DNA of 64,000 nucleotides from Armatimonadota bacterium (GTDB lineage: Bacteria > Armatimonadota > SYMT01): NCBI GenBank assembly GCA_046292385.1, contig JBKBRF010000007.1:123247-187246 (forward strand). The letters are read 5' to 3'. How positions within the stretch are numbered: the stretch's first letter is position 1; the number at the start of each line of letters is the position of its first letter. Of this stretch, positions 25,590 to 52,430 are shown one piece after another. The translations under genes and the position numbers were made by a program. Below the pieces are notes generated by a model. It was not told the origin of the DNA and searched no databases. It saw only the letters and a list, made by a program, of their open reading frames with translations.

Positions 25590-26342
25590 ATGGACCTCCA
25601 GAACAAGTCCGCCATCGTCACCGGAGCGGGATCCGGCATCGGCCGCGCTCTGGCGCTCGCATATGCGCGGGAGGGCGCTCGCGTCGTCGTCTCGGACATT
25701 GCGGAGGAAAGCGGGCAGGAGACGGTCCGCCTGATCCAGGAGGCGGCGCCCGGGGCGGAAGCGCTGTTCGTCCGCGCCGATACCACCAGCCCGGAGGAGA
25801 ACGAAGCGCTGGCGCGGGCGGCGGTGGACCGCTTCGGGGCCCTCCACATCGCCTGCAACAACGCGGGGATCGCCGGGGAGCTGAACCCCGTGGGCGAGCT
25901 CAGTCTGGAAGGCTGGCGGAAGGTGATCGACATCAATCTCTCCGGGGTCTTCTACGGCATGCGTGCGCAGATCCCGCGCATCCTGGACGCGGGCGGCGGC
26001 GCCATCGTCAACCTGTCCTCCATCCTGGGGCAGGTGGGGTCGGCAAACAGCAGCGGCTACGTGGCTGCCAAGCACGGAGTGGTGGGGCTCACGAAGACGG
26101 CGGCGCTGGAGTACTCGGCGCGCGGCCTGCGCGTTAACGCCATCGGCCCCGGGTACACCGACACGCCCCTGCTGACCGAGCTGCCGCGCGAGACGCGGGA
26201 GGGCCTCGTCGCGCTGCACCCGATCGGCGGCCTGGGACGTGCCGAGGAAGTGGCGGAGCTGGTGGTGTGGCTGAGCAGCGACCGCGCCGGGTTCGTGACG
26301 GGCGCTTACTATCCGGTGGACGGCGGTTATCTGGCCCGGTGA
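25590..26342 (+). CDS. Short-chain dehydrogenase/reductase
   Basis: TGAGSGIG, NNAGI, YVAAK. Confidence 0.95.
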   Translation: MDLQNKSAIVTGAGSGIGRALALAYAREGARVVVSDIAEESGQETVRLIQEAAPGAEALFVRADTTSPEENEALARAAVDRFGALHIACNNAGIAGELNPVGELSLEGWRKVIDINLSGVFYGMRAQIPRILDAGGGAIVNLSSILGQVGSANSSGYVAAKHGVVGLTKTAALEYSARGLRVNAIGPGYTDTPLLTELPRETREGLVALHPIGGLGRAEEVAELVVWLSSDRAGFVTGAYYPVDGGYLAR

Positions 26343-33916: not shown

Positions 33917-34327
33917 ATGACGGAAGACCCGAGCGAGCTGATGGAAGGCACGGAGAAGCTGCGGGCGCTCTACGGTTCCTGGATCAGCTTCCACGACGCG
34001 GTGGTGGAGAGTGTGCTGCTGGAGCGGGTCGGCCCGACGGTCACCATCCGGTTCATCACCAACGACGCCGTCTCCACGGACGGCGGCCAGACCGCCGACC
34101 TGGCTAACACTCGCCGTGCCTCGGTGGTGATGCGCTGGCACGAGGTCCGCGACCTGGTGCTCTCAGGCGTCGACTGGGACGAGAACAACTGGATCGACGG
34201 CCTGAAATTCGTCCGCAGCCGCGACACGATCTGCACCCTGATCGAGCGGATGGACGGCACCCACGGCTTCATCCAGGCCGAACGGGTGGAAGTGGTGAGC
34301 GCGGAGCTGCTGGAATGCTCGCAATAG
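33917..34327 (+). CDS. Imm50-like immunity protein
   Basis: LYGSWISFHDAVVESVLLER motif; NWIDGL. Confidence 0.55.
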   Translation: MTEDPSELMEGTEKLRALYGSWISFHDAVVESVLLERVGPTVTIRFITNDAVSTDGGQTADLANTRRASVVMRWHEVRDLVLSGVDWDENNWIDGLKFVRSRDTICTLIERMDGTHGFIQAERVEVVSAELLECSQ

Positions 34328-34398
34328 CGGCTCCGCGGCACCTCGGGAGTGGCTCGGAAACGAAAGCGGCCTGCCGGAGTGGCAGGCCGCATCGGAGA

Positions 34399-34472
34399 CG
34401 CTCGCGGAGGGATTCGAACCCCCGACACCCGGTTCCGAAGACCGGTGCTCTAATCCACTGAGCTACGCGAGC
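34399..34472 (-). tRNA. tRNA-Arg(UCG), CCA not encoded
   Basis: GCTCGCG TAGCTCAGTGGATTAGAGC A CCGGT CTTCGGA ACCGG GTGTC GGGGG TTCGAAT CCCTC CGCGAGC G. Confidence 0.96.
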
Positions 34473-34576
34473 CGGACTGCGCCATTCTAGCAGAAGCTCC
34501 TCCGCGACGGAAGAGGCGGGAGTCACGCTGGCCGGGGAGAGAACGACGAACGCTCCCATGTAGCCGGGTAGTCAAA

Positions 34577-34975
34577 CGGGGTCCGCAAAGCCGCGCGGCA
34601 CTGGAAGTACCTCGCTACTCGGCCTTCGGCCACGCGTCCTCCGGACGCCCGAGCTGACGGGAGGCTGCCCGATGGCGAGTCGGCATTGCCAACAGATCGG
34701 CTCCCTGATTCTCGCAAAGCCAATCCCACGGCCGCCGGAGCGCAAGCGCAGGCGGTCACCTGTGCCGCCCCCGAGCCGCGGGGGCGGAGCTCGAAGGGAC
34801 GCGGAGGCGCCCGTGAGTCGACCTATCGTACTGGAATAGAGACCGGTCGCGGTGCGCAGGCCTTCGGGGCGCACTTTCGGAGGGCTCCGTTAGCCCGAAA
34901 GGGCGTCGGAGGAGCCCGGAGGGCCGTCACGCGGGAGGGCGCCTCCGCGTCACCAGGGCTGGGGGTGGAACCCCG
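34577..34975 (+). ncRNA. Unassigned large structured RNA (about 400 nt)
   Basis: End-to-end closing helix, 15-bp long-range helix, hairpins capped by UUCG, GAAA and GCAA tetraloops; no credible CDS. Confidence 0.7.
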
Positions 34976-35008
34976 GGGATGGGAGACGTCTCCCGCGAAG
35001 CGAAAGCC

Positions 35009-36070
35009 CTACAACTCCGGCAGCGCCGTTCGCCGCTCCTCCGCGGCGAGGAAGTCCCGCAGCAGGCCGGGCTGCGGGCCGCGCCCCGCGAGGCCGAAGT
35101 AGGCGACCAGCCCCACGGCGGTGAGCGCGGCGAAGAGCAGCTTGGCCCACGGCGGGATGAAGGCGGGCGGGGTGATGAAGCCCTCGATCAGGCCGGCGAC
35201 CACCAGCATGGCGGCGGCGCCGAGCACCAGCAGCACCGCCAGGCGGCCCCGCTCCACCAGCGCGTCGCGGCGGGTGCGGCCGCCGGGGGCGAGCAGCGCG
35301 GAGGCGAGCAGGAACCCGGCGCCGCCCATGACGCAGATGGCGGTGATCTCGATGATGCCGTGCGGGAGGATGAGCGACCAGAAGACGAGGGCGGTGCGGG
35401 GTCCGCTCATCGCCTGGCCCAGGATGCCGAGCATCAGCCCGTTGTAGAGCATCGCGTAGAAGGTGCCGAGCCCCAGCAGCAGCCCGCCGGCGAAGGCCAG
35501 GAAGCCGACGGCGATATTGTTGAGCATGATCTGCGTGCTCTGGTCGGTCATCTCCTGCGGGCCGATGTCGTGCCCGGTCCGGTCGCTCCACTGCTGCTGG
35601 AGCAGCGGGAACTGCTTCACCAGCTCCGGCGGGAGCATGTAGTAGCTGCCGGTGGGGTCGCGCCGGTTTACCTCCCACCCGAAGGCGGCGGCGCCGAAGA
35701 AGAGCAGGGCGGCGAGCGCGATGTACTTCCAGGAGTGGCGGAAGAGGCGAGGGAAGTCGATCCAGAGAAAGGTAAGGAGGTCCCGGCCCTGGAAGCGGCG
35801 CGAGCCGTAGACCTGCGCGTAGGCGCGGGCGACCAGGTCGTTCAGATACTGCAGGATCTCCGCGTTGGCGGTCTTGGCCCGCGCGGTGACGAGGTCGGAC
35901 GACGCGCGGCGGTAGAGCACGCCGAACTCGCGCACCTCCGGCGCGGAGAGGCTGCGCAGCCCCTGGCTCTCCGCCTGCTGAAGCAGCAGCTCCAGCCGCT
36001 TCCAGCCGGGCTGGCGGCGGGCGAGGAACTGGTTGAGATCCGCCTTACGCGCGGGGGGCAACGGGATCAC
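35009..36070 (-). CDS. Stage II sporulation protein M (SpoIIM/DUF95) family membrane protein
   Basis: YRRASSDL, IMLNNI, ILPHGIIE, AGLIEGFITP. Confidence 0.9.
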   Translation of the reverse strand: MIPLPPARKADLNQFLARRQPGWKRLELLLQQAESQGLRSLSAPEVREFGVLYRRASSDLVTARAKTANAEILQYLNDLVARAYAQVYGSRRFQGRDLLTFLWIDFPRLFRHSWKYIALAALLFFGAAAFGWEVNRRDPTGSYYMLPPELVKQFPLLQQQWSDRTGHDIGPQEMTDQSTQIMLNNIAVGFLAFAGGLLLGLGTFYAMLYNGLMLGILGQAMSGPRTALVFWSLILPHGIIEITAICVMGGAGFLLASALLAPGGRTRRDALVERGRLAVLLVLGAAAMLVVAGLIEGFITPPAFIPPWAKLLFAALTAVGLVAYFGLAGRGPQPGLLRDFLAAEERRTALPEL

Positions 36071-52246: not shown

Positions 52247-52430
52247 ACCGCAGAGAACGCGGAGCGCGCAGAGGGCTCTGGGGAAACGCGGTAGTTCAAC
52301 GGGAGCGAGGGGTCCGCGAAGGCGGTCCCCCGTCCGGGGGATGAAACTTCGTGCCGTGGTTGCCGCGGTTTCAACCGCCCGGTAGCGCTCCTGAGTTCTC
52401 TTGGCGTCTCTTGGCGCTCTTGGCGGTTGA
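52247..52430. repeat. 9-nt-period repeat remnants between argG and argH
   Basis: cgcagagaa cgcggagcg cgcagaggg ... ctcttggcgt ctcttggcg ctcttggcggtt. Confidence 0.6.

Follow-up and report, generated by a model that had tools for sequence, protein, structure and literature searches.

A putative structured RNA next to a tRNA-Arg gene of an Armatimonadota bacterium is a mosaic of two dispersed repeats, one of them with a covarying branched fold

The interval at positions 34577-34975 of the window (the whole stretch of 64,000 nucleotides, nt, that was analysed, taken from contig JBKBRF010000007.1 of an Armatimonadota bacterium, referred to as C7 below) was proposed in an earlier note, made from the sequence alone, to specify a single multi-domain structured RNA of about 400 nt. 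We found that this interval is a mosaic of two unrelated dispersed repeats, which are chance neighbours in one spacer. The 5' part is a short hairpin module, designated A5', that resembles the repetitive extragenic palindromic (REP) sequences, and the 3' part is a divergent copy of a large branched repeat, designated family B, of which the same genome carries about 142 copies. The structured core of the interval deserves follow-up as a member of this large covarying repeat family. The spacer in question (34473-35008, 536 nt) lies between a tRNA-Arg(TCG) gene and a SpoIIM-like gene, and the region is composed as follows, the two bordering genes being listed as context.

34399-34472, minus strand: tRNA-Arg(TCG) gene, 68.8 bits against the Rfam tRNA family and also detected by ARAGORN (context gene).
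34559-34654, plus strand: A5' module, three short REP-like hairpins, nhmmer 64.5 bits (C7:157805-157900).
34655-34727, no strand assigned: unique linker, including the GGGAG/CTCCC domain; across 34653-34722 the self-match is the only blastn match.
About 34728-35021, plus strand: whole B element, a divergent copy of a branched repeat of about 230-300 nt.
34728-34757, plus strand: B 5' hairpin, GGCCGCC/GGCGGTC with a GCAA loop, aligning with the 5' hairpin of other B copies.
34758-34977, plus strand: B core, 142.5 bits (E = 3.5e-35) against covariance model R1, model positions 1-226.
34978-35021, plus strand: B 3' tail, weakly conserved and overlapping the 3' end of the SpoIIM-like gene.
35009-36070, minus strand: gene for a SpoIIM-like membrane protein (Pfam SpoIIM, E = 2.8e-37), the 3' end of which abuts B (context gene).

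The composite nature of the interval was apparent from its comparison with the organism's own assembly (G000; 7.04 Mb in 91 contigs, 68.9% G+C, 98.45% complete). The region 34473-35010 gave a total of 134 blastn matches in this assembly, and these were stacked on two segments, 34583-34652 (maximum depth 77) and 34913-34972 (maximum depth 54). The arrangement of A5' followed by B, both on one strand and no more than 400 nt apart, was detected at this locus alone, corresponding to one of 80 A5' copies and one of 132 B copies. Since both this arrangement and the linker are unique, the 400-nt unit is considered to be an accident of two insertions.

The local helices recognised in the earlier note could be located and assigned. 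The perfect 15-bp long-range helix (34798-34812 with 34937-34951), recovered in an inverted-repeat search, is a covarying helix of family B; the 9-bp hairpin (34765-34773 with 34779-34787) covaries and is kept across the family, and the GGGCTCC/GGAGCCC pairing (34882-34888 with 34911-34917) is present within a domain, 34882-34917, that also covaries in B. The GGCCGCC/GGCGGTC hairpin around GCAA is real and represents the 5' hairpin of B. The motif ACTGGAA, reported twice, is present at both 34600 and 34830. The GGGAG/CTCCC domain does lie in the interval but falls in the unique linker, outside either repeat. The sequence had been supposed to lie outside known RNA families, and inside 34577-34975 no match to Rfam 15 was obtained either at the gathering score or at E≤10, the tRNA-Arg(TCG) gene being the sole Rfam family match at the gathering score. 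As to open reading frames (ORFs), of which the earlier note saw no credible one, the two overlapping ORFs, 34686-35102 on the plus strand and 34572-34874 on the minus strand, carry no Pfam family. Homologues and covariation, which had been named as the means of checking the proposal, were both found for the B part (142 copies in G000, strong covariation). What had to be given up was the unity of the interval, as the REP-like repeat that makes up its 5' quarter has no relation to the remainder and the segment 34655-34727 is unique. The comparison with single-copy non-coding RNA genes in the style of OLE, GOLLD and raiA also failed, as its structured part recurs in G000, with dispersed copies that number about 142 and are oriented at random relative to genes. 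The notion of an undescribed structured class applies to most of the 3' two-thirds, which covaries and is without an Rfam 15 match, but not to the whole interval as a unit.

The copies of B were collected with an iterated nhmmer profile and with the covariance model R1 (226 positions, 43 base pairs), for which the training set consisted of the window copy, 30 other copies of G000 and one copy of a related genome, G005. Using nhmmer, 157 matches were detected in G000, including 132 above 100 bits; the window copy (C7:157984-158267, corresponding to window positions 34738-35021) scored 106 bits and is among the most divergent in the family. Model R1 detected 142 copies in G000, 15 in G005, 8 in G006 and 2 in G004, and none in G001, G002, G003 and G007, so that four of the eight genomes of the order are positive. 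Among 151 genomes sampled from the phylum, matches were found in these four only, the other 147 being without any. Three related genera besides that of G000 carry B, and two genomes of one genus, G001 and G006, differ in having 0 and 8 copies, respectively. A pattern scan of public contigs gave at least 46 loci, of which nine, in two records of metagenome-assembled genomes, were confirmed by the model, the others among the matches listed being chance matches, so that the scan contributes little to the distribution. The titles of these two records give different phyla, and the classification of this lineage in public records seems unreliable. No Rfam 15 family matched B at the gathering score in the window and at 18 loci, at E≤10 in the region 34300-35200, or at E≤1 in a canonical B doublet. 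In the open-access papers searched, we found no description of these repeats. Family B is undescribed and restricted to this lineage.

In the fold of B, a 9-bp hairpin is accompanied by a short outer stem and by the long-range helix of 15 bp, which encloses a variable region; the structure is completed by two inner helices, one nested in the other (around 34882-34917), and by a hairpin on the 3' side (34961-34974). The window copy, in spite of its divergence, forms 42 of the 43 consensus pairs. In the alignment of 77 B matches (66 distinct), which was fitted to R1 itself, standard pairs occupied 95.5% of 2718 cells, as compared with 77.7% in shuffled controls (none of the 500 shuffles reached the observed value) and 38-46% after sliding of the partners; changes on both sides were found in 28 of the 43 pairs, including 14 of the 15 pairs of the long-range helix. 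An independent analysis of 36 copies by MAFFT and RNAalifold gave compensatory changes in 24 of 46 pairs. Between nearest copies, paired sites differed at a rate of 0.084 per site and unpaired sites at 0.173. The helices of B contained 269 G.U or U.G cells versus 29 A.C or C.A cells, with several U.G pairs being near-invariant, and this excess of G.U over A.C indicates that the fold belongs to the strand that is plus in the window. Many unpaired nucleotides of B, those of the junctions included, are conserved, and this holds across genera too. Optional hairpin insertions, where they occur in B copies, sit at loops. One small optional hairpin of about 20 nt (CCCCCG...CGGGGG type) is inserted at different places in some 3' modules of family A and in some B copies, for instance at C2:197882, C10:72561 and C60:122, and looks like a third, nested miniature repeat. 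A coding role of B was rejected, because only 17 of 66 cores contain a sense frame free of stops and the core lengths show no preference for multiples of three (30, 20 and 16 cores in the three classes of length modulo 3). Clusters of similar 'neighbour proteins' near B proved to be spurious ORFs inside the elements.

The setting of B was analysed with crude gene calls (ORFs with a filter on G+C at third codon positions), giving 5284 genes that cover 84% of the genome. The 126 B copies classified by the orientation of flanking genes were distributed over the four classes as 34, 33, 32 and 27, and the neighbouring genes are functionally unrelated, both in G000 (49 proteins scanned) and in its relatives (16 proteins). 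Random orientation together with unrelated neighbours ruled out B as a leader or riboswitch of a gene family. Domains of Planctomycete type (PSCyt1, PSD3, DUF1501 and DUF1552) are borne by B neighbour genes. When two B copies lie close to each other (less than 2 kb, 29 pairs), 27 pairs are head-to-head, two are tandem and none is convergent; head-to-head doublets also exist in G005. The resulting composite, about 800 nt long, forms an imperfect palindrome, the arms of which are about 76-78% alike, and it recurs at no fewer than 10 loci with 77-82% identity, its ends being sharp but dissimilar. Neither a sigma-70-like promoter nor an intrinsic terminator was predicted in the canonical doublet or in the window copy. 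The sequence TCTGT is mildly enriched near B, on its 3' side, and only one of 132 copies has three or more units. Two further candidate roles were rejected: B as a terminus of some autonomous element, as there is no multi-copy gene between copies and no B beside the 12 Y1 genes, and B as a sponge for CsrA, as no CsrA gene was found in G000. For the IscB-type domain RRXRR (PF14239), no match was obtained in G000, but the control was positive in no genome, so this search is uninformative.

Some B copies stand in distinctive surroundings. In a prophage-like cluster (C40:17000-35400, with genes for terminase, SPP1-type portal, capsid, and head and tail completion proteins), six B copies lie between the genes, all opposite in strand to them, and eight successive copies on C40 are on one strand. 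One B copy was detected in a provirus fragment of IMG/VR. In G005, four copies within about 6 kb (C3:830600-836900) adjoin a Cas1 gene. Same-strand tandem arrays with a spacing of about 430-600 nt, in which some copies are devoid of the inner domain, occur in G006 (C47:3673-4933 and C236:9059-11966) and are rare in G000. Units of 7-8 nt (GGGATGA-type on one strand, CCCTCTGT and CTCCTAC types) form runs at many loci of G000, for example at C51:25790-25820, and a 29-mer of the GGGATGA type has 56 near-matches there; these runs often abut the ends of A or B (C5:135547, C39:17438 and C8:56490) and are no general feature of B flanks.

The A5' core motif was detected 80 times in G000, allowing up to two mismatches, and the whole family A gave 106 matches with an iterated nhmmer profile. 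About 57 A5' copies run on into a conserved 3' module, and others have another 3' module or consist of one half alone, which indicates that family A is modular. The window copy is A5' only, without the usual 3' module, and its first stem contains a C.U mismatch where the family has an A-U pair. Among 12 full A copies, the sequence is near-invariant, and 3 of 38 predicted pairs covary. A fragment of the family A 3' module was detected elsewhere in the window, at 52312-52411 (C7:175558-175657; nhmmer 57 bits, model positions 198-277). A-like matches were also found in G013, a genome of another family of the phylum (nine matches), and in soil-metagenome contigs aligned with the window, the loose ends of which are at 34610 and 34652. 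Only two strong matches to Y1_Tnp, the HUH transposase domain, were found in G000, one of which is associated with A5'-like sequences.

C51:25905-26330: Y1 transposase gene, single-copy, IS200/IS605-type, bracketed by inverted A5'-like two-hairpin units.

In a 1.1-kb search, the A5' profile matched both flanks of this gene, at 25840-25888 (plus strand) and 26420-26368 (minus strand), with E values of 1.5e-5 and 1.6e-4, respectively; both flanking units are a two-hairpin variant without the middle hairpin of A5'. By NCBIfam, the C51 transposase belongs to IS200/IS605 (73.4 bits, cut-off 55). Based on its copy number and on the flanked Y1 gene, together with the lack of assignment of this enzyme to the clade of REP-associated tyrosine transposases (RAYT), A5' is best filed, as judged from sequence, as REP-like and not as a RAYT system proper. 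According to Di Nocera et al. (PMC3733652), a conserved GTAG or CGTC tag marks one end of REP hairpins. The third A5' hairpin starts with G-CGTC, but its CGTC is paired, not an unpaired end motif. The second Y1 gene (C22:55627-55965, IS200-type) has on its two sides, in inverted orientation, copies of another dispersed repeat, which is about 100 nt long; this gene with its flanks gave 78 blastn matches and looks like a second REP-like system in G000.

As references, known systems were compared with both repeats. OLE, GOLLD, ROOL and raiA RNAs are encoded by single- or low-copy genes, often in conserved neighbourhoods. B is similar to them in size class and in its multi-helix fold with GNRA-like and UUCG loops, and differs in its approximately 142 copies, in the lack of a conserved neighbourhood and in the lack of an Rfam match. 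The omega RNAs of TnpB and IscB and the HEARO RNAs are, like B, structured, hundreds of nt long and capable of many copies per genome; in contrast to these, B has no adjacent nuclease gene, no TnpB zinc-ribbon is found in G000, and there is no Rfam match. ERIC, Correia/NEMIS and RUP are structured repeats resembling miniature inverted-repeat transposable elements (MITE). Such repeats share with B a non-coding, dispersed, intergenic and foldable nature, and the 800-nt composite of B is likewise palindromic with sharp ends, but the ends of B are not simple terminal inverted repeats, and even a single arm folds into several covarying helices that show a strand-specific excess of G.U pairs.

The REP/REPIN-RAYT systems and the bacterial interspersed mosaic elements (BIME) are the nearest counterparts of A5', sharing short GC-rich hairpins, about 80 extragenic copies and mosaics of modules, and, as in REP/RAYT systems, related hairpins in inverted orientation stand on both sides of a single-copy Y1 gene. 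The differences lie in the C51 transposase, which is IS200/IS605 by NCBIfam, and in its flanking units, which are without the middle hairpin of A5'. The preference of B for head-to-head dimers agrees with that reported for most REP families (PMC3733652), but B, with 230-300 nt and a branched long-range fold, by far exceeds a REP of 20-40 bp in size and complexity. In behaviour, B is closest to the TwoAYGGAY RNAs (RF01731) of Pseudomonas, of which it is not a member. In the preprint on these RNAs (10.64898/2026.09.22.753630), up to 202 copies are described, associated with REP arrays, and of their doublets 68% are divergent, the median spacing being 249 bp. On this description, the two families share a multi-copy structured nature, a copy number that varies strongly among relatives, mostly divergent doublets with a spacing of one to a few hundred bases, and a physical association with REP-type repeats. 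The two differ in that B gives no match to RF01731 (at E≤1 for the canonical doublet and at E≤10 for the window region), its consensus (alignment A2) is without A[CT]GGA[CT], and the phyla are different; upstream arrays of short repeats, reported in the same preprint for TwoAYGGAY, are no general feature of B.

Taking these observations together, we regard it as rather probable that the interval represents two adjoining non-coding dispersed repeats, A5' being a REP-like sequence spread by a Y1 enzyme and B being a non-autonomous repeat whose folded strand is under selection; B is most likely a selfish or commensal mobile repeat. A5' would be recognised as folded hairpins of single-stranded DNA and spread in trans by the Y1 (HUH) enzyme encoded on C51, a role suggested by the arrangement at that locus and by the known action of IS200/IS605 and RAYT enzymes. 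B may be mobile as well, and its folded single strand, either DNA at the replication fork or a transcript, would be the recognition substrate of a trans-acting factor; selection for those B lineages that can propagate would preserve the helices even as the sequences drift. In favour of this picture, SpoIIM-like orthologues exist in all six family relatives, with a spacer after the gene of 56-833 nt as compared with 536 nt here, and neither a B copy nor a tRNA gene was found within 1.5 kb of the orthologue in any of the six. A number of results weigh against it. The score of the C51 transposase against REP_Tyr_transpos of NCBIfam was 21.7 bits, below the cut-off of 80, so it does not fall in the RAYT clade. 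At 10 composite B copies inspected by eye, no target-site duplication could be seen. The downstream neighbours at the SpoIIM locus differ among the relatives, so it is not a clean empty site, and neither a transposition event nor an empty site for B was demonstrated. The search for a mobilising enzyme of B gave none: no multi-copy gene, and with it no parent insertion sequence, was found between the B copies of G000, and none of the 12 Y1 loci in the order is flanked by B. The TnpB zinc-ribbon (PF07282) was absent from G000, with the control positive in 8 of 14 genomes, and so was reverse transcriptase (PF00078), with the control positive in 3 of 14, though repeated genes may be unassembled in this 98.45%-complete genome. 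The orientation of B with respect to local GC skew, which is itself weak in G000, shows a weak bias at best (p = 0.04 for 78 single copies and p = 0.21 for all 132). The nearest B copies have a median identity of 86% and a maximum of 95.5%, and 135 of the 207 helix differences between them keep the pair, which would equally fit selection in place, meaning a function.

The last two observations, the age of the family and the preservation of pairs, speak for B copies as functional structured RNAs selected in place, acting in trans or as domains of neighbouring transcripts, with the window copy being a plus-strand RNA gene of about 260 nt. The very strong covariation with unpaired nucleotides conserved across genera, the 9:1 ratio of G.U over A.C, the difference rate at paired sites of half that at unpaired sites, the placement of optional hairpins at loops, and the divergent doublets, which resemble those reported for TwoAYGGAY (10.64898/2026.09.22.753630), would all agree with such a role. 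It is however hard to reconcile with 142 copies in random orientation to genes, with 0 versus 8 copies within one genus, with the absence of a predicted sigma-70-like promoter or intrinsic terminator in the canonical doublet and the window copy, and with the failure to find a partner protein (CsrA, TnpB zinc-ribbon or reverse transcriptase), and we consider it possible but well short of an even chance. We are somewhat more doubtful about a related proposal, in which B would represent a novel type of large functional RNA, about 250 nt long and present in many copies, that is transcribed outward from the doublets. It might be a catalyst, or else a scaffold or guide in some mobile or defence system so far unrecognised. 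With equal reserve, such an RNA may be regarded as taking in this lineage the functional place of the TwoAYGGAY RNAs, and the window copy would then be a diverged but fully foldable member (42 of 43 pairs). A role of B and A5' as DNA, either as structural or protein-binding sites (BIME/REP-like, for gyrase or a nucleoid protein) or as hairpin barriers at transcript ends, appears improbable. The strictly intergenic mosaics of variously combined hairpin modules would suit it, and roles at the DNA level are ascribed to REPs in the literature (PMC3733652), but binding to double-stranded DNA would give no strand-specific excess of G.U and would not keep a branched long-range fold, and B is not depleted from divergent, promoter-containing spacers (34 of 126). 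By far the least credible is the original proposal of a single RNA of about 400 nt, made up of several domains and closed by pairing of 34577-34586 with 34965-34975. This closing helix does appear in the minimum free energy fold of the plus strand (-215.9 kcal/mol, z = -2.63, equalled by none of 100 shuffles; z = -1.79 for the minus strand), along with most of the listed local hairpins, but it bridges two different repeats, its 5' arm being a stretch at the 5' side of A5' and its 3' arm being the 3' hairpin of B. In the RNAalifold prediction over 36 B copies, the latter arm is taken up by a local GGGG/CCCC hairpin (34961-34974). The two halves come from repeat families that occur independently of each other and meet in this arrangement once, and the A5' copy concerned is truncated and has a mismatch in its stem.

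An impressive fold predicted from a single sequence may be a mosaic of dispersed repeats, and a check of copy number within the genome settles the question quickly. Among bacterial intergenic repeats, B is unusual in being large and branched with covariation no less clean than in curated RNA families, in its strand-specific excess of G.U pairs, conserved junction nucleotides and near-exclusive head-to-head doublets, and in reaching about 142 copies in one genome as against 0-15 in relatives, with neither an Rfam family nor a partner gene. A second, unrelated family behaving like TwoAYGGAY would suggest a general class of self-propagating structured repeats of RNA or DNA. The hairpins of the A5' type that flank a Y1 gene of IS200 type, and not of RAYT type, bear on the origin of REPs from insertion sequences.

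Two minor observations were made on the other side of the tRNA gene. A GC-rich, terminator-like hairpin followed by a T-rich tail (34366-34390, minus strand) is located directly downstream of tRNA-Arg. Just past it, at 33917-34327 on the plus strand, lies a gene for an immunity protein of the Imm50 family (Pfam, E = 7e-10), and a polymorphic-toxin locus is possibly nearby.

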